NCBI GenBank assembly: GCA_031552845.1
Contig: JAVBMC010000046.1
Coordinates: forward strand, 863-64,862
Reading direction: 5' to 3'
Length of the DNA stretch: 64,000 bases
From: Kiritimatiellia bacterium
GTDB lineage: Bacteria; Verrucomicrobiota; Kiritimatiellia; RFP12; DVOR01
In this document: in pieces, positions 1 to 43,570 of the stretch
How the letters are laid out: the number at the start of each line of letters is the position of its first letter
Numbering within the stretch: position 1 is the stretch's first letter
Program-made: the position numbers and the translations under genes
The notes under the pieces: generated by a model
The model's input: the letters and a program-made list of their open reading frames with translations, nothing else
Databases searched by the model: none
Told to the model about the DNA's origin: nothing

Positions 1-1090
1 GGGCTATAAATCCAAAGGGTTGACGCGTACGGTGCCGGAGCAGGTGGTTTGGACAGCACCAGAGTCGCTGGAGAGGTTGCAGCAGATTGATCTTGGATTT
101 GCGTCGTTCTATCTGCCCAAGCGGGAGTGGTATACGGTTCACGCACGGCCAACGACAAACTCTCATACGTTTGCGGTGGGGATTTATGGTGATGGAGTTG
201 AAGTATGGTGTCACACTGTTGGCATGGCGGACTCGACTACGACTGAGTTTGCGGGGCAGCTTGGAGTAGAGAAGGCTGGCTTTGTGGATATTGAACTATT
301 TCTCGCGCAAACGCCGCCGGTATCGTGGCGCGAAGTCTTCAGTTTATCAAAAGAAGAGTTCACGATGCGGCTTGTCTATTTGACGATGAAGACCACAATG
401 TGTAGTTATCATCAATATATCGCTGAAGGTCCTCATTGCCGAGGACTTGGGGGTGGCGGGACATCTAACAGTAGCGCATTGGAGTTGACGGGAAAGCTGG
501 GATCCACATCAATTGTTTTGTATCTAGGCTCTCCAGATAATAAAGTCGAGGCATTAGCCAATATCATTGGCGGCACATTTACTTTCAAGGAGGATGTGCC
601 AGCAGAAGAGACCCCACTACGGCAGGCGGCATTCGTGGAACGGGTGCGGAAAGGCGAGGGCGATGATGCGCGGTTTATTGTTTTGAATCTAAAAGCGATG
701 CCGACGTTTCCGCTGGCGGATGCTTTAAAAGCTGCGGAGAGGCTGTTGGCGGCAGAAGGAATAGAGCGGCAATGCGCTTGGGCAGATTCGATGTTGTCCC
801 GCGATGGCGATGGATGGCTCTTGCGCTATGGGCCGAACAAAGAGGAGGGGTTTGGAGTGATTGTCACACCGGATTCGGCGCGGTTGATCAAAGACAGGCA
901 TTTGGCTGTTGAGTACGTGCCGTCACAGCCGATTGAGGATGTGCTGCCATTGATTGAACAAACTCCGGAACGGTTCACCGTCAGCGTCTATTCATCATAC
1001 GGAGAAAAGTGGGAGGCGCAGGTTTATGAAAGAGGCAACGGACATCCCAACACGGTATCATTGATTTCACCGCAGGATAAAACGGAGTAG
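1..1090 (+). CDS. Membrane-anchored paralog family member (5'-partial at window edge)
   Basis: Reading frame stays open to position 2 (GYKSKG precedes TRTVPEQ); the ORF-track start at 20 is a TTG. Shares motifs with 1094..2311 and 2844..4052: PESLE.LQRIDLGFASFYLPKREWY, AAFVERVRKGEGDDARFIV, MPTFPLADALKA, DGWLLRYGP. Confidence 0.7.
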   Translation, partial: GYKSKGLTRTVPEQVVWTAPESLERLQQIDLGFASFYLPKREWYTVHARPTTNSHTFAVGIYGDGVEVWCHTVGMADSTTTEFAGQLGVEKAGFVDIELFLAQTPPVSWREVFSLSKEEFTMRLVYLTMKTTMCSYHQYIAEGPHCRGLGGGGTSNSSALELTGKLGSTSIVLYLGSPDNKVEALANIIGGTFTFKEDVPAEETPLRQAAFVERVRKGEGDDARFIVLNLKAMPTFPLADALKAAERLLAAEGIERQCAWADSMLSRDGDGWLLRYGPNKEEGFGVIVTPDSARLIKDRHLAVEYVPSQPIEDVLPLIEQTPERFTVSVYSSYGEKWEAQVYERGNGHPNTVSLISPQDKTE

Positions 1091-1093
1091 AGA

Positions 1094-2311
1094 ATGCGTA
1101 TGTGTAAATTATGGCGTGGCATTGTTTATACGGCAATTGGGATAGTCCTGCTGGTGGTGTACGCGTATTACGGGTGGCGGATTTATGCGGTGGGGAAATT
1201 GGAGCGGGCATCGCGGGGTATCACGAAGTCTGTACCGGAGCATATGATGTGGAACGCACCGGAATCGTTGGAGAATCTGCAACGGATTGATCTTGGGTTC
1301 GCGTCGTTCTATTTGCCTCAGCGGGAGTGGTATATTATCCGAGCACTACCTGCGACATATAATCCGTCTACATCTTTTCTTGTGAGTATTTATGGGGAAG
1401 GGTTTTGGGTGCAACTGCTGAACGCAAGGGTCCCAAAGGAGGTGTATGTCCCGACGTTGGGCAAGACGTTGTCTGGCGGGGCAGAGGATTCTATATGGCT
1501 CTACTCGTTGCCACCGATCTCGTTAAGGGAGTTATTCTTTTTGCCGCATGATCAGTTTGTGAGCAGGGTGGCGTGCCTAAGTGAAAAAGATAGGGCATTT
1601 GGTGAAGGTGATCAGTATATTTTTGAGGGTCCTCATTCGCGAGGATATGGAAGAGTGGAAAAAGAAAGCTGGGGGCGTGGTGCCTTGGATGTGTGTGGCA
1701 ATCAGAATCCGCTGTCGGTATTCCTTATGTTTCGCGTGCTGAAAGAAAGCGGGCTGGCTCCGGAGTCTTTGCCGACGTTGATAGGCGGTACATTTGTCGT
1801 GGCTCCTGAGGCAAACATTGAAGAGGCACAGGTAGCTCAAGCAACATTTGTAGAGCGGGTGCGCAAGGGTGAAGGGGATGATGCGAGATTTATTGTTATG
1901 AATGAACGAACGATGCCGACGTTTCCGTTGGCGGATGCGTTAAAGGCTGGGAGAAAAGCCTTGCCGCCAGAATTGGCGGGGTTGCCATGTGTGAGCGCGC
2001 GTTCGGTGTTGTGCCGCGAGGATGACGGATGGTTCTTGGAGTATGGGAGTACTGTAGAGGGGAGGCAGGCGGTATTGGTGTCCTCAGAGGTGACGAAACT
2101 GATTAAGATAGTTTATTCCACGACGGAAGGTGTGCCGATTTGCCCAATGGAACAAATTGAATCGTTGCTTCAGCAGCAGCCCGATCGTTTTAAAACACGC
2201 GTGGAATGGCGTAATAACGAATGGAGGGCGTTGGGGTATTATACTGCCGATGGTGGGTTTAGCAGCATCAAGGAAGTTTTAGTGCCGACGCCATCTTCCC
2301 CCAGCCCTTAA
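1094..2311 (+). CDS. Membrane-anchored paralog family member B (unknown function)
   Basis: 405 aa with an N-terminal TM helix (IVYTAIGIVLLVVYAYYGW); alignable along its whole length with the other two copies. Confidence 0.75.
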   Translation: MRMCKLWRGIVYTAIGIVLLVVYAYYGWRIYAVGKLERASRGITKSVPEHMMWNAPESLENLQRIDLGFASFYLPQREWYIIRALPATYNPSTSFLVSIYGEGFWVQLLNARVPKEVYVPTLGKTLSGGAEDSIWLYSLPPISLRELFFLPHDQFVSRVACLSEKDRAFGEGDQYIFEGPHSRGYGRVEKESWGRGALDVCGNQNPLSVFLMFRVLKESGLAPESLPTLIGGTFVVAPEANIEEAQVAQATFVERVRKGEGDDARFIVMNERTMPTFPLADALKAGRKALPPELAGLPCVSARSVLCREDDGWFLEYGSTVEGRQAVLVSSEVTKLIKIVYSTTEGVPICPMEQIESLLQQQPDRFKTRVEWRNNEWRALGYYTADGGFSSIKEVLVPTPSSPSP

Positions 2312-2381
2312 GTTGTATAAGTCTGACTCTTGCCGTGATTTTGCTTATTAGACAGCTAACAGTTAGCATAAAAGGATAAGA

Positions 2382-2834
2382 ATGAAGTACCATTTAATTT
2401 CTGTGAGGGATTGTCCTGAATATCTTGAGCGTGCGGCGGAGTATTTTTCAGCGAAGTGGGATGTTGGCTACAGGGTTTATTTTGACAGCATCAAGCACAG
2501 TATCACTACGCCGAGTCCGCTGCCGCGGTGGTATCTGTTGGTGAATGATGGTGATGAGATTGTCGGCTGTTATAGTTTGGTCACAAATGATTTTAACAGC
2601 AGGCAGGATTTGTGGCCGTGGTTTTGTGCGTTGTATGTCGAGGAATCTGCGCGCGGGCAGAAGCTCGGGTCCATGATGCTTGAGCATGGTAAATGTGAGG
2701 CGAAGAAACTCGGCTTTGACACGGTGTATCTGGCGACTGATCTCGTGGGCTACTATGAAAAGTATGGCTTTACTTATCTGGCGCAGTGTTACGGGCTCGA
2801 TAATGAACAGCGTGTGTATGTGGCAACAGTCTGA
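2382..2834 (+). CDS. GNAT family N-acetyltransferase
   Basis: 150 aa. Acetyl-CoA binding-like core (CALYVEESARGQKLGSMMLEHGKCEAKKLGFDTVYLAT..YYEKYGF). RBS AAAGGATAAG precedes the ATG. Confidence 0.75.
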   Translation: MKYHLISVRDCPEYLERAAEYFSAKWDVGYRVYFDSIKHSITTPSPLPRWYLLVNDGDEIVGCYSLVTNDFNSRQDLWPWFCALYVEESARGQKLGSMMLEHGKCEAKKLGFDTVYLATDLVGYYEKYGFTYLAQCYGLDNEQRVYVATV

Positions 2835-2843
2835 GATTTAATT

Positions 2844-4052
2844 ATGCAAAAGAAGTTAGGACGAATCATCTTGTACGTAGTGGTGGGAGTATCACTGTTG
2901 TTGACGTGCGCGTATTATGGGTGGCGGATTTATGCGGTGGAAAAATTAGCGAGGGCATCGCAGGGCATCACGAAGTCTGTGCCGGAGCATGTGGTATGGA
3001 GCGAGCCGGTGTCGAAGGAAGGATTGCAGCGGATTGATGTAGGATTCGCTTCGTTCTGCGTGCCGAAGCGGGAGTGGTATACTGTGTACGCCAAATCGGT
3101 GAAGGAGCCGCCGCATTGGTTTGATGTCAGTATTTTTGGCGCTGATTTTATGGTACACTTGATGAATGTTTGGGTGCCGGAGCAGGGAGCTCTTGAAGTG
3201 CCAGGCGGGGTGATTGGCGATGGAGTGAGAGATTTTATGCAGCTTTATCAGACGCCGCCGTTGTCATGGCGGGAGATATTTTGTTTGTCGAATAGGGAGT
3301 TTCTGACACGGGTGAGTTGGCTAACGTTAAGGACTGAAGCGTGGATGCCCAATGGGACTACTTTTACGGGACCTTATTGCGAGGGAACGTTTGAAGTTTC
3401 CCCCTGGACGTCGGATGGCGGGTTGCTTGAGATTGGCGGGCTTCAGAAACCGACATCAATGACGATGGCATTTTATTGCTTGGAGGAAGGAGCTTTGCGT
3501 CCGGAATCGTTTGCAGAGTTGTTGGGGAGTACGTTTGTTTTTAATGACGAAGTGGACGTTTCTGATAAGCGGGTGCTGCAGGCGGCATTCGTCGAGCGGG
3601 TGCTGAAGGGCGAGGGCGATGATGCACGGTTTATTATGATGAACGTAAAGGCGATGCCGGTATTTCCGCTGGCGGATGCGTTGAAGGCGGCGAAGAAGTT
3701 GTTGGCGGCTGAGGGATTGGAGCGCCCATGCGTTTCGGCGAGTTCGACGTTATGCCGAGAGAGTGATGGTTGGCTGTTGAGATATGGACCAACCAAGGAA
3801 GAGGGATTCGCAGTGCTCGTGACGCCGGATTCGGTGCAGTTAATCAAAGATGCCTTTCTGGCCGACGAGGGCGTTCCTGCCCAGCCGATCGAAGAGGTGC
3901 TGCCATTGACCAAGCAAACCCCAGAACGCTTCGCTGTTGGCGTACGTTGGTATGGGGGGAAGTGGGATGCAAGGGTTTACGAGGCTGGCAATTGTGATCT
4001 GGGTTATGTGTCATTGGAGACTCTGCAGGAGTCGGCGGCGTCAACTCCCTAA
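2844..4052 (+). CDS. Membrane-anchored paralog family member C (unknown function)
   Basis: 402 aa with N-terminal TM (IILYVVVGVSLLLTCAYYGWRIYAV) and the same conserved blocks as copies A and B. The 3' flank CCTAAGTTGTGTAAGTTTGATT is nearly identical to the 3' flank of copy B. Confidence 0.75.
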   Translation: MQKKLGRIILYVVVGVSLLLTCAYYGWRIYAVEKLARASQGITKSVPEHVVWSEPVSKEGLQRIDVGFASFCVPKREWYTVYAKSVKEPPHWFDVSIFGADFMVHLMNVWVPEQGALEVPGGVIGDGVRDFMQLYQTPPLSWREIFCLSNREFLTRVSWLTLRTEAWMPNGTTFTGPYCEGTFEVSPWTSDGGLLEIGGLQKPTSMTMAFYCLEEGALRPESFAELLGSTFVFNDEVDVSDKRVLQAAFVERVLKGEGDDARFIMMNVKAMPVFPLADALKAAKKLLAAEGLERPCVSASSTLCRESDGWLLRYGPTKEEGFAVLVTPDSVQLIKDAFLADEGVPAQPIEEVLPLTKQTPERFAVGVRWYGGKWDARVYEAGNCDLGYVSLETLQESAASTP

Positions 4053-16335: not shown

Positions 16336-16535
16336 GCTCACGCGGAGACGCGGAGGCGCGGAAAGAAACTGACACGGTTGTTGGGCAGGGCGTGTTTCGC
16401 CGAAACCGCTGTGTGTGTTCGATGGAGTCGGTGAAATCGACGAAATCGCGTACTGTTTCTGGGAGCGCCGGCGTCCTCGCCGGCATTTGTGTGTGTCTCT
16501 CCTCTCTTTCCGCGCTTCCGCGTCTCCGCGTGAGC
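16336..16535. repeat. 30-bp inverted repeat pair (1 mismatch) enclosing ~140 bp; MITE-like or long hairpin
   Basis: GCTCACGCGGAGACGCGGAGGCGCGGAAAG at 16336..16365 and its reverse complement (one A/G difference) at 16506..16535. The enclosed segment contains the GTTTCGCCGAAAC palindrome. Confidence 0.6.
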
Positions 16536-16587
16536 TTCTTCTTCCCCTTGTCTTTATTGAGGTTCATTCTTCCGCAAACTTTCCCTC

Positions 16588-16615
16588 TTGACTTACTCCT
16601 TAATTCTGCTAAACT
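16588..16615 (+). promoter_or_regulatory. Sigma70-type promoter (TTGACT-N16-TAAACT) for HU-like gene copy 1
   Basis: TTGACT 16588..16593 and TAAACT 16610..16615. The same element and flanks are found at 41921..41948 upstream of copy 2. Confidence 0.55.
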
Positions 16616-16897
16616 GCATCCCCGTTGACCCCATTGAGTGACTCGTCACTGATTCGGATCTTGAGGCTCGGAGTTCCAAGCGAATCTCCGCCCCCCGACA
16701 TACGAGAGCTTAAGCTCCAAGGAGCCATCAACTATAAAGACTGCCCGTTTGGCCGGCGTGCAGTCCAGATGCCAGGGGGATATCCACCAATCGCACGAGT
16801 GTGCTGTATGGTTTATTCGGAATCGCTTTGGCGTCGGGTTGACAGACGCCGCCGACTGCCAGCATCAACTATAGGCGGCAAGAAAGAACAAGACATC

Positions 16898-17638
16898 ATG
16901 TCAACAACAACAAACGAGCCCACCAGCTCGATTCAGGTACAAATCGTCAAGCCCGTCTCCGGCGAGCTTGTTAAGGACGGACTGCAGACGGTGAAAGCCA
17001 TCTCCCGCAGCACCGTCTCCAACGCCCAGCTCCTCGACTTCATGGTCGGCGACGGCGGCGGCATCAGCAAACCTCAAGCCAAGGCTTTTTACGAAGCCTA
17101 TGCAGACACCGTCAGCCGGTTGCTCCTCGCGGGACACAACATCCCCGTGGGCGACCTCGGTTACCTGCACGTCACGGCCAAAGGCGTGTTTGATGCGGAA
17201 GGTAAACCCGTGGAAGGTAAAGAGCTGATCTTCAAGATCAAGTTCCTGCCCAAGAAGGTCGTCAAAAACCTTCTGGCGAACCTGCCCTATGAAACCGTCG
17301 AAGCTCACGACCGCCAGCCCCGTCTGAATACGGTGACCGACAGCATTACGCTGAACGTCAACTCCGTCGTCACACGCGGGATGTCGGCCAAGCTCAACGG
17401 CAAGAACCTCAAATTCCACCCCCTCGTGGCTGACGAAGGCCTCTTCTTCGTTCCCGTCGAGGGTGGAGCTGCGGTCAAGGTCACCCAATTCCTCGACAAC
17501 CGCGACGTACGTCTCACGTTCAACGTGCCGGGTGAACTCACGGAAGGCACCAACTACCGCCTCGAAGTGCGCAAACGCTTCAGCGGGTGCAAGGCCTTAC
17601 GTATCGGAACCCTTGAGAACACGCTCAGCGTGAACTAA
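16898..17638 (+). CDS. HU-like DNA-binding protein (Bacteroidetes-type HU_2 N-terminus) with DUF4469-like Ig-fold C-terminal domain, copy 1
   Basis: 246 aa starting MSTTTNEP. Overall architecture and the C-terminal block HPLVADEGLFFVPVEGG match the DUF4469-type family. The ORF-track upstream extension (16625) runs through a leader that is conserved at the nucleotide level but not in reading frame. Confidence 0.55.
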   Translation: MSTTTNEPTSSIQVQIVKPVSGELVKDGLQTVKAISRSTVSNAQLLDFMVGDGGGISKPQAKAFYEAYADTVSRLLLAGHNIPVGDLGYLHVTAKGVFDAEGKPVEGKELIFKIKFLPKKVVKNLLANLPYETVEAHDRQPRLNTVTDSITLNVNSVVTRGMSAKLNGKNLKFHPLVADEGLFFVPVEGGAAVKVTQFLDNRDVRLTFNVPGELTEGTNYRLEVRKRFSGCKALRIGTLENTLSVN

Positions 17639-17671: not shown

Positions 17672-17710
17672 AGGGGCAGGCGCCACATCGGCGTCTGCCC
17701 CTTTTTTATT
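17672..17710 (+). terminator. Rho-independent terminator
   Basis: GGGGCAGGCGCC-ACATC-GGCGTCTGCCCC followed by TTTTTTATT. Confidence 0.7.
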
Positions 17711-17777: not shown

Positions 17778-17865
17778 GGCTCACACAAATTATCCATACG
17801 GCTCGCGCATTTTATCCATTGGGCTCAGTCAAAATACCCGCCCGGCTCACGTAAATATCCGAGCT
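17778..17865. repeat. Four tandem 22-bp direct repeats (iteron-like array) downstream of HU-like copy 1
   Basis: Units start at 17778, 17800, 17822 and 17844: GGCTCACACAAATTATCCATAC / GGCTCGCGCATTTTATCCATTG / GGCTCAGTCAAAATACCCGCCC / GGCTCACGTAAATATCCGAGCT. Confidence 0.75.
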
Positions 17866-18074
17866 ACGTCGCGGGACGCCAACATGAGACATCAGGTAAT
17901 GAGTGAGAAGTAATAGGTAATAAGTGTGAGAGGTATAGTGAAAATACTGAAAGAAGATGGAATAAAAGTTCATGTAGAGAAAATTGTCCTAAGACGGCAC
18001 AGATCCAAACAGATAATGGGAAAAGCAGTCAGTAAAGGTGATAGATAATACGTGGGGGAGACTAAACGCGGTAC

Positions 18075-18153
18075 GGCGGTTTCGGCGAAACCTACCCTAC
18101 CTTTGAGAGTAGGGCTGACGCGGTTGTTGGGTAGGGCGATGTTCGCCGAGCGC
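18075..18153. repeat. Palindrome-plus-hairpin repeat element (GGCGGTTTCGGCGAAAC ... CCCTACC-TTTGAGA-GTAGGG ... GTTCGCCGAGCGC)
   Basis: 13-bp perfect palindrome GTTTCGGCGAAAC at 18079..18091, followed by hairpin CCCTACCTTTGAGAGTAGGG. Related copies at 16393..16408 (reverse complement), 41841..41856 and 43207..43248. Confidence 0.7.
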
Positions 18154-41744: not shown

Positions 41745-41840
41745 TTGTGTGAATCACGGCGCGGCGCGTTCAGTCACTCTTCCCCTTGGGAGCGCGGGCA
41801 TTCCTGCTCGCATGATGTTTGTGTGTGCGTCAGCGGGTGC

Positions 41841-41856
41841 GGCGGTTTCGGCGAAG
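41841..41856. repeat. GGCGGTTTCGGCGAAG palindrome-family repeat (5' flank of HU-like copy 2)
   Basis: Same motif as 18075 and 16393. Preceded by GGGTGC as in the 43202 copy. Confidence 0.6.
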
Positions 41857-41920
41857 TCGATGAAGTCGAGTTTGTGTCTCCCCTGAGCGTACCAGCGTCC
41901 CCGCCGGCATTCTTTCCCTC

Positions 41921-41948
41921 TTGACTTATCCCCTTAATCTGCTAAACT
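41921..41948 (+). promoter_or_regulatory. Sigma70-type promoter (TTGACT-N16-TAAACT) for HU-like gene copy 2
   Basis: Nucleotide-identical core to 16588..16615. Followed by a ~250-nt leader about 85-90% identical to the copy 1 leader. Confidence 0.55.
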
Positions 41949-42197
41949 GCAACCCCGTTGACCCCATTGGGTGACTCGTCACTGACGCATGGCGCATACG
42001 AGAATCCAAGCTCCAAGGAGCCATCAACTATAAAGGACAGCCCGTTTGGCCGGCGTGCAGTCCAGATGCCAGGGGGATATCCACCATCGACGCGAGTGCG
42101 TCAATCGGTCTACTTCGGAATCGCCATGGCATCGGGCTGACAGACGCCGCCGGCTGTCAGCTTAACACTTCAAGGCGGCAGTTAGGAAATTAAAACC

Positions 42198-42908
42198 ATG
42201 GCTATTCGATATCACTTAGGGCCCGCGCTGCGGGCGGATCGGGCGGCGGCGGGCGAGATGATTGTGCATTCATCCACCGCACTGCGCATTCAGCAAGAGG
42301 AACTCGCCGACGAACTCGTCCGCCAAGGGACAACCGTGCGCCGCGCCGATGTGCTGGCCGTACTCGATAATCTCGGACTCGCGGTGGGGCACCTGTGCGC
42401 CCGCGGCATTGCGGTTTCAATTCCGAATCTCGGCACCATGACCCCGCGCGCTCGGGGCGTGGTCGATCGCAACGGCGCGTGGGTCCGCCCGCTGGAGGGG
42501 TACTTGACGCTACAAGCCGACCGCGGGCTGGAGGCTGTTTTCAATCAACACGCAAAGTTCCAAGAAGTCCCCCGCAAACCGGTACGCGCCATCATTCGGC
42601 GGATTTTCAACGTAACTGCCGCTCCGGGAGATGTCCGGCTCGTGCCGGGTGATGTGTTCGAAGTACAAGGCCGGCATTTACGGTTCAATGCCGCCGCGGC
42701 CGATGAAGGGATTTTTCTGAAACGCGCCGAGGGTTCAACTACGGAGGAGGTCAAGGTGATCGAGGTTTGGCCCCAGACCCCCTCGCGGGTACTCTTCCGC
42801 GTGCCGACCACAATCATGCCCGGGGACTGGTTATTAGAGGTGCGGGTCCGCCAAAAGGACTGTTCACGCGTAACCGTGTCCGAACCGCAAATTATTTTGA
42901 CCTGTTGA
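42198..42908 (+). CDS. HU-like DNA-binding protein with DUF4469-like C-terminal domain, copy 2
   Basis: MAIRYHL N-terminus typical of Bacteroidetes-type HU_2 family proteins. C-terminal NAAAADEGIFLKRAEG block parallels copy 1. RBS-like AGGAAATTAAAACC precedes the ATG. Confidence 0.55.
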   Translation: MAIRYHLGPALRADRAAAGEMIVHSSTALRIQQEELADELVRQGTTVRRADVLAVLDNLGLAVGHLCARGIAVSIPNLGTMTPRARGVVDRNGAWVRPLEGYLTLQADRGLEAVFNQHAKFQEVPRKPVRAIIRRIFNVTAAPGDVRLVPGDVFEVQGRHLRFNAAAADEGIFLKRAEGSTTEEVKVIEVWPQTPSRVLFRVPTTIMPGDWLLEVRVRQKDCSRVTVSEPQIILTC

Positions 42909-42935
42909 CCGCTCCGTTTATATGTGCGTACGCTT

Positions 42936-43045
42936 CACGGGCTTGCAACCCCGTCATCACGGGCTTCGAACCCCGCGCCCGCGGGCTTGCAAGCCCCACC
43001 CGATGGGCTTATAAGCCCGTGGACGCAGGCTTATAACCCCGCACG
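42936..43045. repeat. Five tandem 22-bp repeats, each a small palindrome (GGGCTTGCAAGCCC / GGGCTTATAAGCCC type), downstream of HU-like copy 2
   Basis: Unit starts at 42936, 42958, 42980, 43002 and 43024, exact period 22. Unit shape nnnGGGCTTnnAAnCCCnnnnn. Confidence 0.8.
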
Positions 43046-43206
43046 CAGATAGTGCGTGTTGCGGTGTTGTTCAACCAGTGCTGCGGCACTTGCGCACGGT
43101 TGGTGCAGTGCGGAATCAATCGCATTAGCCCTGCTGGCTCCATCTCATGACTTCTCCGATTTTCACCGACTTCTTCGATAATGTTGTGGGTGCGGCGGTC
43201 TCGGCG

Positions 43207-43248
43207 AAACGCGCCCTACCTTTTGGAAGTAGGGCTGGCGCGGGCATG
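43207..43248. repeat. Palindrome-plus-hairpin repeat element (GGCGGTCTCGGCGAAAC..GCCCTACC-TTTTGGAA-GTAGGGC)
   Basis: Homologous to 18075..18113. Flanked by ~32-bp direct repeats (approx. 43132..43166 and 43268..43302: C.GGCTCCA.CTC..GACTTC.CCG). Confidence 0.65.
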
Positions 43249-43541
43249 TGTCTGGGAGCGCACGCAGCTTGCCCTACCGGCTCCACTCCACGACTTCGCC
43301 GCTTCTCTCAATCGGGAGTGCGGGCTGAACGTGTGTTAAATTTGGCTTTAGTGCAGAGTTGTATTGTTGTAACGGAGGATGGCTCCCTTGCAGATTCGTC
43401 ATGCCCGCGTGTCGGCCAAAACTTTTCGCACGATACGAAGAAAGGCTTGAATGCAAGCAAAATGCGGCATTTTAAAAGGGATTCAGACGATTTGCGAGCG
43501 TGAGCACACGTGAAAAAAAAAGAAAAAAAAGGATTTTGAAG

Positions 43542-43570
43542 TTGACCCTCTCCTAAGAAAATGCTAAACT
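43542..43570 (+). promoter_or_regulatory. Sigma70-type promoter TTGACC-N17-TAAACT with A-rich UP-like tract; long leader
   Basis: The A-tract at 43511..43530 precedes the -35. The -10 context TGCTAAACT is the same as in the HU-like promoters. About 220-nt leader before ATG 43800. Confidence 0.5.

Follow-up and report, generated by a model that had tools for sequence, protein, structure and literature searches.

The 64,000-nt stretch analysed here (the window; Kiritimatiellia bacterium, contig JAVBMC010000046.1) contains two cassettes, each built around a gene for a protein that joins an HU-type domain to an immunoglobulin-like (Ig-like) DUF4469 domain. Our main subject is cassette 2, which carries an extended -10 promoter, a 5' untranslated region (UTR) of ~245 nt with predicted structure, the gene (copy 2) and five phased 22-bp palindromic units (Table 1), and would thus be a self-contained transcription unit. 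A first-pass annotation of this DNA had described it as the second copy of the cassette. The coordinates and sequences given there for the two open reading frames (ORFs) proved correct, and the promoter core is indeed the same in both copies, down to the upstream TG. Each paralogue has its own promoter, and copy 1 also has a clear intrinsic terminator. In a terminator scan, no canonical terminator was recognisable upstream of the copy 2 array; the hairpin 3' of this array, on which the scan made no call, is a possible weak transcript end.

Table 1. Features of cassette 2, cassette 1 and the orphan array, in window coordinates.
Feature	Position	Strand	Details
REP-like (repetitive extragenic palindromic) motif GCGGCGGTTTCGGCGAA, upstream flank of cassette 2	41839..41855	+	motif search
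Sigma-70-type promoter, cassette 2	41921..41948	+	TTGACT-16-TAAACT, upstream TG (extended -10)
Non-coding 5' leader, cassette 2	41955..42197	+	~245 nt; start inferred from -10 element
Structured leader core, cassette 2	42005..42140	+	helices P2 to P5, 36 base pairs; covariance model R1, 156.9 bits
Block identical in both leaders	42041..42086	+	46 nt
Gene copy 2, HU-HIG (HU-fold) + DUF4469 (Ig-like) protein	42198..42908	+	ORF of 236 amino acids
Copy 2 array, five 22-bp units	42939..43040	.	imperfect palindromes (ACGGGCTTGCAACCCCGT, GGGCTTGCAAGCCC, GGGCTTATAAGCCC)
Hairpin 3' of copy 2 array	43040..43070	+	CGCACGCAGATAGTGCGTG, then T-poor tail; read from sequence
REP-like element, downstream flank of cassette 2	43192..43236	+	hairpin CCCTACC-TTTTGGAA-GTAGGG; copy 1 counterpart 18073-18117
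Promoter, cassette 1	16588..16615	+	TTGACT-16-TAAACT, upstream TG
Structured leader core, cassette 1	16709..16842	+	R1, 144.1 bits
Gene copy 1, HU-like + DUF4469 protein	16898..17638	+	246 amino acids
Strong intrinsic terminator, cassette 1, upstream of its array	17672..17702	+	13 pairs, then TTTTTTATT
Copy 1 array, four 22-bp units	17778..17865	.	non-palindromic, GGCTCRNNNAWWWTATCC
Orphan array, 23-bp period	59408..59473	.	palindromic unit GATGGGA-N-TCCCATC; no adjacent HU-like gene

Both proteins belong to the Ig-fused subclade of the HU-HIG family. Copy 2 scores 37.6 bits for PF14734 (cut-off 22.6) and 28.1 bits for PF18291 (cut-off 26.2), copy 1 scores 56.0 bits for PF14734 and, under the cut-off, 22.9 bits for PF18291; the HU-type N-terminal domains (PF18291, PF14848) are near or above their cut-offs in both. 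A profile built from 21 relatives matches both domains of PDB entry 4FMR, the Bacteroides vulgatus protein BVU_2165 (hmmsearch, E = 1.2e-17, residues 18-222), followed by many HU and IHF chains. 4FMR is also the top Foldseek match (E = 2e-14) of an AlphaFold2 model of copy 2 (predicted local distance difference test score, 81.5). The template modelling (TM) score to 4FMR is low (0.39) because the two domains are differently oriented; for residues ~30-120 of the model, superposition on HU structures gives TM-scores, normalised to the target, of 0.65-0.80. The cassette proteins resemble the Ig-fused subclade (PF18291/PF14848 + PF14734) in their two-domain architecture, their length of about 230-250 residues and their occurrence as solitary genes with no conserved operon and many fast-diverging paralogues. 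A full HMMER scan of the HU-HIG/DUF4469 family yielded 2414 clusters at 50% identity, all of ~230-250 residues. The sections of Burroughs et al. 2017 (PMC5499826) that deal with the HU-HIG clade present it as a Bacteroidetes radiation of solitary, fast-diverging genes with lineage-specific expansions and no known function, and propose a role in biological conflict; neither repeat arrays beside the genes nor conserved leaders come up in these sections. The members described here differ from that picture in that they also occur in Treponema and in the lineage of the window, with an array and a leader.

The units of the copy 2 array (GGGCTTNNAAGCCC) start at 42939, 42961, 42983, 43005 and 43027, that is, at an exact 22-bp spacing. 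Those of copy 1 start at 17778, 17800 and 17822, also 22 bp apart (motif search and Tandem Repeats Finder, TRF); a fourth unit at 17844 was read from the sequence and has its ATCC half shifted by one base. TRF reported a period of 22 at 42935-42997 and 43006-43048 for copy 2 and at 17778-17827 for copy 1, so the periodicity proposed at first pass stood up to formal tandem-repeat analysis for both arrays. The first-pass description of the copy 2 units as mini-palindromes (ACGGGCTTG|CAACCCCGT) also held; the copy 1 units are non-palindromic at the same spacing. Units within a window array are 75-82% alike. Counting arrays of period 20-25 and score at least 58, we found three loci in the real window and 0.017 arrays per window in 60 dinucleotide-preserving shuffles. 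The units abut head to tail with no spacers, which sets them apart from a CRISPR (clustered regularly interspaced short palindromic repeats) array. Elsewhere in the window there is no further site within two mismatches of the copy 2 unit. Simple autoregulation, with the array unit recurring in the promoter or leader of the same cassette, was considered and dismissed, as no extra sites were found there for either copy.

The pairing of gene and array extends far beyond the window. We ran TRF on 80 metagenome loci of a ~30%-identical subfamily from termite gut, which had been chosen by peptide motif only, and inspected two of them by eye. Both flanks were long enough in 48 loci, and 39 of these have an array with a period of 21-25 bp, located within 260 nt 3' of the stop codon or 60-450 nt 5' of the start; the background in the remaining 140.6 kb of these loci is three such arrays. 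A period of 23 bp is the most frequent (~43 arrays), followed by 24 bp (~14), with few arrays at 21-22 bp, and copy numbers range from 2.3 to 12. A JGI contig (L003) illustrates the arrangement: its protein (P0006) is ~30% identical to copy 1, and in the locus a promoter and a ~310-nt leader precede the gene, which is followed by a terminator and then by 5.5 units of 24 bp. In L084, a more closely related locus that stems from the same run as the Logan contig of the window, ~23-bp units come after a terminator. A tblastn search of PLSDB gave six matches (Treponema saccharophilum pTS2, Fulvitalea axinellae pFA1 and four Parabacteroides distasonis replicons), all six with a 23-24-bp array directly 3' of the gene. 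Units are alike inside an array and sharply different between loci. The first-pass statement that the period is kept while the unit sequence is not thus holds in Bacteroidota, in Spirochaetota and in the lineage of the window at the least. The suggestion that the architecture is under constraint gains support, as three independent sets all show a gene accompanied by an array of 22-24-bp period and locus-specific unit: copy 1, copy 2 and L084; the ~30%-identical subfamily; and the Treponema, Fulvitalea and Parabacteroides replicons. The gene-array linkage is family-wide and crosses phyla. In the literature on DUF4469, HU-HIG, 4FMR, the Pfam accessions and HU-like proteins with direct repeats, we found no description of such arrays, and the architecture is apparently undescribed for this large family.

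About half of the consensus units in the family contain a good inverted repeat; at least six arm matches are found in 51% of units versus 11% of shuffled ones. A common pattern is arm-AG[G/C]CT-arm', as in GTACA-AGGCT-TGTAC, and palindromic units with such a centre fit a symmetric dimer. We considered a strand-specific orientation of the AGGCT core and rejected it: the orientations split 20 to 14, and the AG[G/C]CT centre is itself an odd palindrome, so that its orientation carries no information. In 13 loci the array lies upstream of the gene, in L028, for example, upstream of the promoter. The idea that upstream arrays are really the downstream arrays of a neighbouring family gene was discarded, as a second family fragment occurs in just 1 of 81 loci.

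Our preferred reading is that the array serves as a cis binding platform for the protein encoded beside it. Dimers of the HU type would occupy the palindromic units, one per 22-23 bp (about two helical turns), and may assemble cooperatively into a short nucleoprotein filament. Such a filament could serve to mark the locus or to insulate it, or else to regulate the gene itself or those nearby. With the protein encoded beside its sites, the pair would stay together through the rapid gain, loss and divergence of the family. The shared leader would be a cis-regulatory RNA that places both paralogues under common post-transcriptional control, and gene conversion may keep it alike within the genome. 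We hold with moderate confidence that an HU-fold dimer binds the adjacent phased array in a self-contained module of this kind. IHF (PDB 1IHF) is a sequence-specific member of the HU fold, an HU-fold dimer able to recognise specific DNA. The N-terminal domain of the copy 2 model superposes on IHF as well as on HU structures; IHF differs from the cassette protein in binding single asymmetric sites of ~30-35 bp, in lacking an Ig domain and in having no array at its own gene. The arrays that follow strong terminators, and those upstream of promoters in 13 loci, favour a role at the DNA level.

Several observations weigh against this reading. Nine of the 48 metagenome loci have no array, and orphan arrays exist both in the window (59408-59473) and among the metagenome loci. 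The copy 1 units are non-palindromic, as are about half of all units. In L066, L073 and L078, the protein domains are 98% and 90% identical and the units 46-67% alike, with a shared core such as CCAGCCT[TA]G; units therefore diverge faster than proteins, which makes strict one-to-one specificity uncertain and disfavours tight recognition of the whole unit. L001, a contig with a close relative of copy 2, has no periodic array, just one perfect and one degenerate palindrome. The leader structure described below was derived from the very three sequences that support it, and two of these are close. Finally, the relevant section of Burroughs et al. (PMC5499826) argues that the Ig domain of 4FMR narrows the HU clasp, making DNA binding unlikely, and suggests that Ig-fused versions may bind RNA or protein instead.

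That last suggestion also fits an alternative in which the arrays act through structure, either as RNA hairpins (a 3' UTR array or protein sponge) or as DNA cruciforms or hairpins whose shape is recognised by the HU-like protein or by another factor. The arms vary between loci yet stay complementary around a conserved 5-nt centre, a pattern that fits a symmetric dimer site and a hairpin or cruciform alike, and the units evolve faster than the proteins. Cruciforms and kinked DNA are the substrates that classical HU prefers. The copy 2 array precedes any recognisable terminator and many metagenome arrays begin 2-25 nt past the stop codon, so that some arrays may be transcribed. At L041 1846-2049, a nine-unit array fills the gap from the stop codon of the HU-like gene to the ribosome-binding site of the next co-directional gene, which implies that at least some arrays either are transcribed or include the next promoter. 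However, the arrays of copy 1, L003, L084 and L087 lie downstream of strong terminators, 13 loci have their array upstream of the promoter, the symmetric AG[G/C]CT centre holds no strand information, and about half of the units, those of copy 1 included, have no good inverted repeat. We consider action through structure unlikely.

A role in plasmid replication or partition, with the cassette as a replicon module or its relic, is suggested by the resemblance of 22-bp direct repeats beside the gene of a small DNA-binding protein to iteron origins and to parC- or sopC-type centromeres, and by an AT- and purine-rich stretch 3' of the copy 1 array. Both window arrays consist of phased direct repeats in the range of ~17-22 bp by which iteron origins are recognised. 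In theta-replicating plasmids, Rep initiators have such arrays, for example the iterons of pSC101 and those of R6K, which are 22 bp long. The cassettes share with them the repeat length, the phasing by two helical turns, the location beside the gene of the presumed binder and units that differ between relatives. They differ in having no Rep-family protein, in being chromosomal and multicopy, in having many palindromic units and in placing the array on either side of the gene; there are no demonstrable origin features at the cassettes, although DnaA boxes were not searched for. ParR-parC, SopB-sopC and the omega heptads are centromere-like repeat arrays with their binding proteins. As in these systems, a small dimeric protein, presumed to bind DNA at the cassettes, is encoded beside an array on which it may form a higher-order assembly. 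Unlike them, the cassettes have no gene for a partition NTPase, the fold is HU and not ribbon-helix-helix (RHH) or helix-turn-helix (HTH), and there are many paralogous chromosomal copies. A Pfam scan of the flanking genes in the window detected no Rep, ParA, ParM or TubZ gene, and no partner gene recurs among the metagenome loci. The context of the window is chromosomal (nusA-infB, ilvD, mscS, purL), two HU-linked arrays and one orphan array lie within 64 kb, a single metagenome sample contains dozens of family loci, and the HU fold is not that of Rep, RHH or ParB proteins. The term iteron used at first pass, if meant in the sense of plasmid replication, is not supported, and we regard a replicon or partition module as barely conceivable.

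The cassette leaders pose a separate question. A global alignment shows similarity between the two copies from ~10 nt upstream of the -35 element to the ATG, and a BLAST comparison of the window with itself pairs 41912-42161 with 16579-16863. The conserved block singled out at first pass, a 46-mer (CCCGTTTGGCCGGCGTGCAGTCCAGATGCCAGGGGGATATCCACCA), occurs exactly twice in the window, at 16744 and 42041, and not at all in shuffles. The leaders are highly alike, as had been claimed, but the figure of 85-90% was slightly high: promoter and leader are 81% identical over 282 ungapped positions (71% counting a 37-nt indel, an insertion in the copy 1 leader) and the structured core is 84% identical. 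Neither method detects nucleotide similarity between the coding sequences, and the proteins are, as stated at first pass, only distantly similar (24% identity over 210 residues, E = 2e-12, by BLASTP; 21% in a multiple alignment). The non-coding parts are thus more conserved than the coding ones, 81% against 21-24%, and a simple recent duplication, which had been named as the outcome that would overturn this picture, is not seen. We also asked whether the leader might be coding. The copy 1 leader is open and in frame with the gene (ORF 16625-17638). In copy 2, however, a TAG in frame with the gene lies shortly before the ATG, and the length of the indel is not divisible by three, hence the leader is non-coding. 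The operon 3' of cassette 2 has a promoter at 43542-43570 (TTGACC-17-TAAACT) with the same TGCTAAACT extended -10, and here too a long leader, of about 180-220 nt, comes after it; to some extent, then, the conserved promoter core may simply reflect the strong-promoter consensus of the organism.

A third leader was found on a Logan contig from a different run (L085); the protein encoded there (P0011) shares 32% identity with either window copy. Homology to the window leaders is recognisable in the sequence upstream of its gene, where a promoter (TTGCAG-17-TGCTATACT) lies at the same distance from the leader start. RNAalifold predicted 63 pairs from the three leaders, 19 of them with compensatory double changes. 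Within the 136-position core, 94% of cells are paired, compared to 31-43% when the partners are slid by one to three columns, and ten pairs have changed on both sides, compared to 0-3 in the slid controls. Helix P4 is almost fully re-coded in L085, from GAUGCCAGGG/CCAUGGCAUC in copy 2 to GAGAAGUUGC/GCAGCUCCUC. The leader thus looks like a structured RNA, to judge from these base-pair changes. Apart from the two window copies, the covariance model built from the core, R1, matched only L085 as well as L001 and L002, both of them truncated; it had no match in the termite-gut subfamily, where upstream regions are no better conserved than coding sequences; exceptional leader conservation as a trait of the whole family was accordingly rejected. 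Rfam gave no match over the whole window at the gathering score and, at E <= 5 on 41880-43150, only a spurious microRNA match on the palindromic array. The cassette leader resembles the ribosomal-protein leaders in Rfam in being a long 5' UTR with conserved helices common to the genes of one family, and differs from Rfam leaders in having no Rfam match and in being found only in the lineage of the window and L085.

The leader and protein trees disagree. The window proteins are 21% identical to each other and 32% to P0011, whereas the leader cores are 84% identical to each other and 55-62% to L085. This contradiction points to homogenisation of promoter and leader within the genome, and it supports the first-pass idea of gene conversion confined to the regulatory part; the same discordance is expected from co-evolution with a shared genome-specific factor. 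The compensatory base-pair changes indicate that functional constraint acts too, and the sequence evidence taken together points to constraint and conversion both acting on the leader. Such discordance would also be accounted for by an ordinary old duplication with a recent conversion tract in the leader and functionless slippage repeats downstream, as would the modest similarity of units within the window arrays (75-82%) and the missing array of L001. Against it, the 22-24-bp period and the position next to the gene have been kept in three phyla and in more than 45 independent loci with different units, and the leader of a distant homologue retains its helices by compensatory changes. Duplication with functionless repeats is strongly disfavoured, and we judge it very improbable.

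The closest view of divergence within the family comes from L001, whose protein (P0002) is 73% identical to copy 2. When window positions 42079-43150 are compared with L001 1-1075, nucleotide identity is 90-97% in the leader and HU domain and 48-58% in the Ig domain and array region. This mosaic reflects either a recombination breakpoint in the middle of the gene or a joint faster evolution of Ig domain and array. L001 retains one perfect GGGCTTGCAAGCCC palindrome, and a weaker counterpart of the downstream REP-like element lies at about 945-1005. In both Logan contigs for this gene family, the assembly breaks off precisely where the 46-nt block ends, as is expected where several contexts share a repeat. 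Searches with the copy 2 protein against phage records and with the copy 1 protein against plasmids gave no match, and a leader pattern gave none in viral contigs. In the contigs of the GTDB representative genomes, a leader 24-mer had no match, and the 92 pattern matches of a copy 1 subfamily profile included none that could be confirmed; the lineage of the window is therefore absent from these genomes. Three copy 1 orthologues known from NCBI only (P0003, P0004, P0005) were not located on contigs.

The genomic neighbourhoods suggest another possibility, namely that the HU-like protein is a local regulator of adjacent, often surface-protein, genes and that the array is an activating or insulating site for the next operon. 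Both window cassettes lie upstream of operons for very large proteins, among them Laminin_G_3 and TSP3-repeat proteins and ORFs of 2029, 1386 and 1472 residues, a protein with leucine-rich repeats (LRR/BspA) is encoded downstream in T. saccharophilum, and fimbrillins in P. distasonis. The next gene is co-directional in 15 of 20 loci with a downstream array. In Treponema denticola, TDE_2259 has the same domain pair as the cassette proteins (PF14848 + PF14734), likewise outside Bacteroidota and beside a surface LRR gene, lrrA, and both genes are down-regulated in a trtA mutant (PMC12724145). TDE_2259 is known only from that response, and no binding sites, array or leader have been reported for it. 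On the other hand, five arrays precede convergent genes, thirteen lie upstream of the HU gene, and the next promoters in the window are ~500-550 nt past the arrays. The genes next to the cassettes are diverse, with no conserved operon partner, and those downstream in the family include solute-binding proteins, glycosyltransferases, a beta-galactosidase and a carboxylase. Surface-related neighbours are thus often found but inconsistent, and we think a local regulator of the neighbouring operon quite unlikely. TDE_2259 and lrrA are controlled by TrtA, an XRE-family regulator (PMC12724145). XRE-family HTH genes lie near the HU-DUF4469 gene in two unrelated loci, L001 (983-1450, minus strand) and L003 (7351-7713, minus strand), and a regulator of this family may be a recurrent regulatory partner.

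Some further features of the window deserve mention. The REP-like motif has four matches at up to two mismatches in the 64 kb, at 16396 (minus strand), 18073, 41839 and 43192 (plus strand), all of them flanking the two cassettes; shuffles gave 0.36 matches at up to three mismatches. The downstream copies run on into the hairpin CCCTACC-TTTGGAA-GTAGGG. A segment of ~200 bp rich in REP-like modules lies directly upstream of the copy 1 promoter, between inverted repeats of 31 nt that are 97% complementary (16336-16366 and 16505-16535); the whole, 16336-16535, looks like an insertion of the miniature inverted-repeat transposable element type. The purine- and AT-rich stretch 3' of the copy 1 array spans 17880-18060 (gtaatgagtgagaagtaataggtaataagtgtgagagg...) and is unusual for a window with a GC content of 53%; nothing comparable is present 3' of the copy 2 array. 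TRF counts 2.9 copies in the orphan array, and inspection by eye adds a degenerate fourth unit; the array is located between a 166-residue ORF (59532-60032, minus strand, no Pfam match) and the purL promoter, and may be the target of a paralogue encoded elsewhere. Finally, 20-4052 holds tandem paralogous ORFs (20-1090, 1094-2311, 2382-2834 and 2844-4052) with shared blocks of 73-80% nucleotide identity; NCBIfam gave nothing for the last of them.

HU-HIG/DUF4469 is a very large family that has undergone massive expansion in gut Bacteroidota, and the gene-array link provides the first concrete candidate ligand for its proteins, one that is directly testable in the tractable species P. distasonis and T. 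denticola. The leader is a candidate for a new cis-regulatory RNA motif and exemplifies concerted evolution confined to promoter and 5' UTR. We tentatively propose that HU-HIG/DUF4469 genes and their 22-24-bp arrays constitute widespread, hitherto unrecognised modules of a protein plus a private site array, found in Bacteroidota and Spirochaetota as well as in other bacteria of the gut and the environment. Each paralogue would assemble on its own array, and in the lineage of the window the RNA leader would add a common control kept uniform by conversion. If so, genomes would hold many orthogonal, addressable chromosome marks, and fast co-diversification of protein and sites would explain the expansions of the family. 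If each protein does bind its own array, the family would offer a naturally occurring collection of DNA-binding proteins and site arrays in orthogonal pairs, with a bearing on chromosome organisation, on the locus-specific regulation of surface structures and on parts for synthetic biology.

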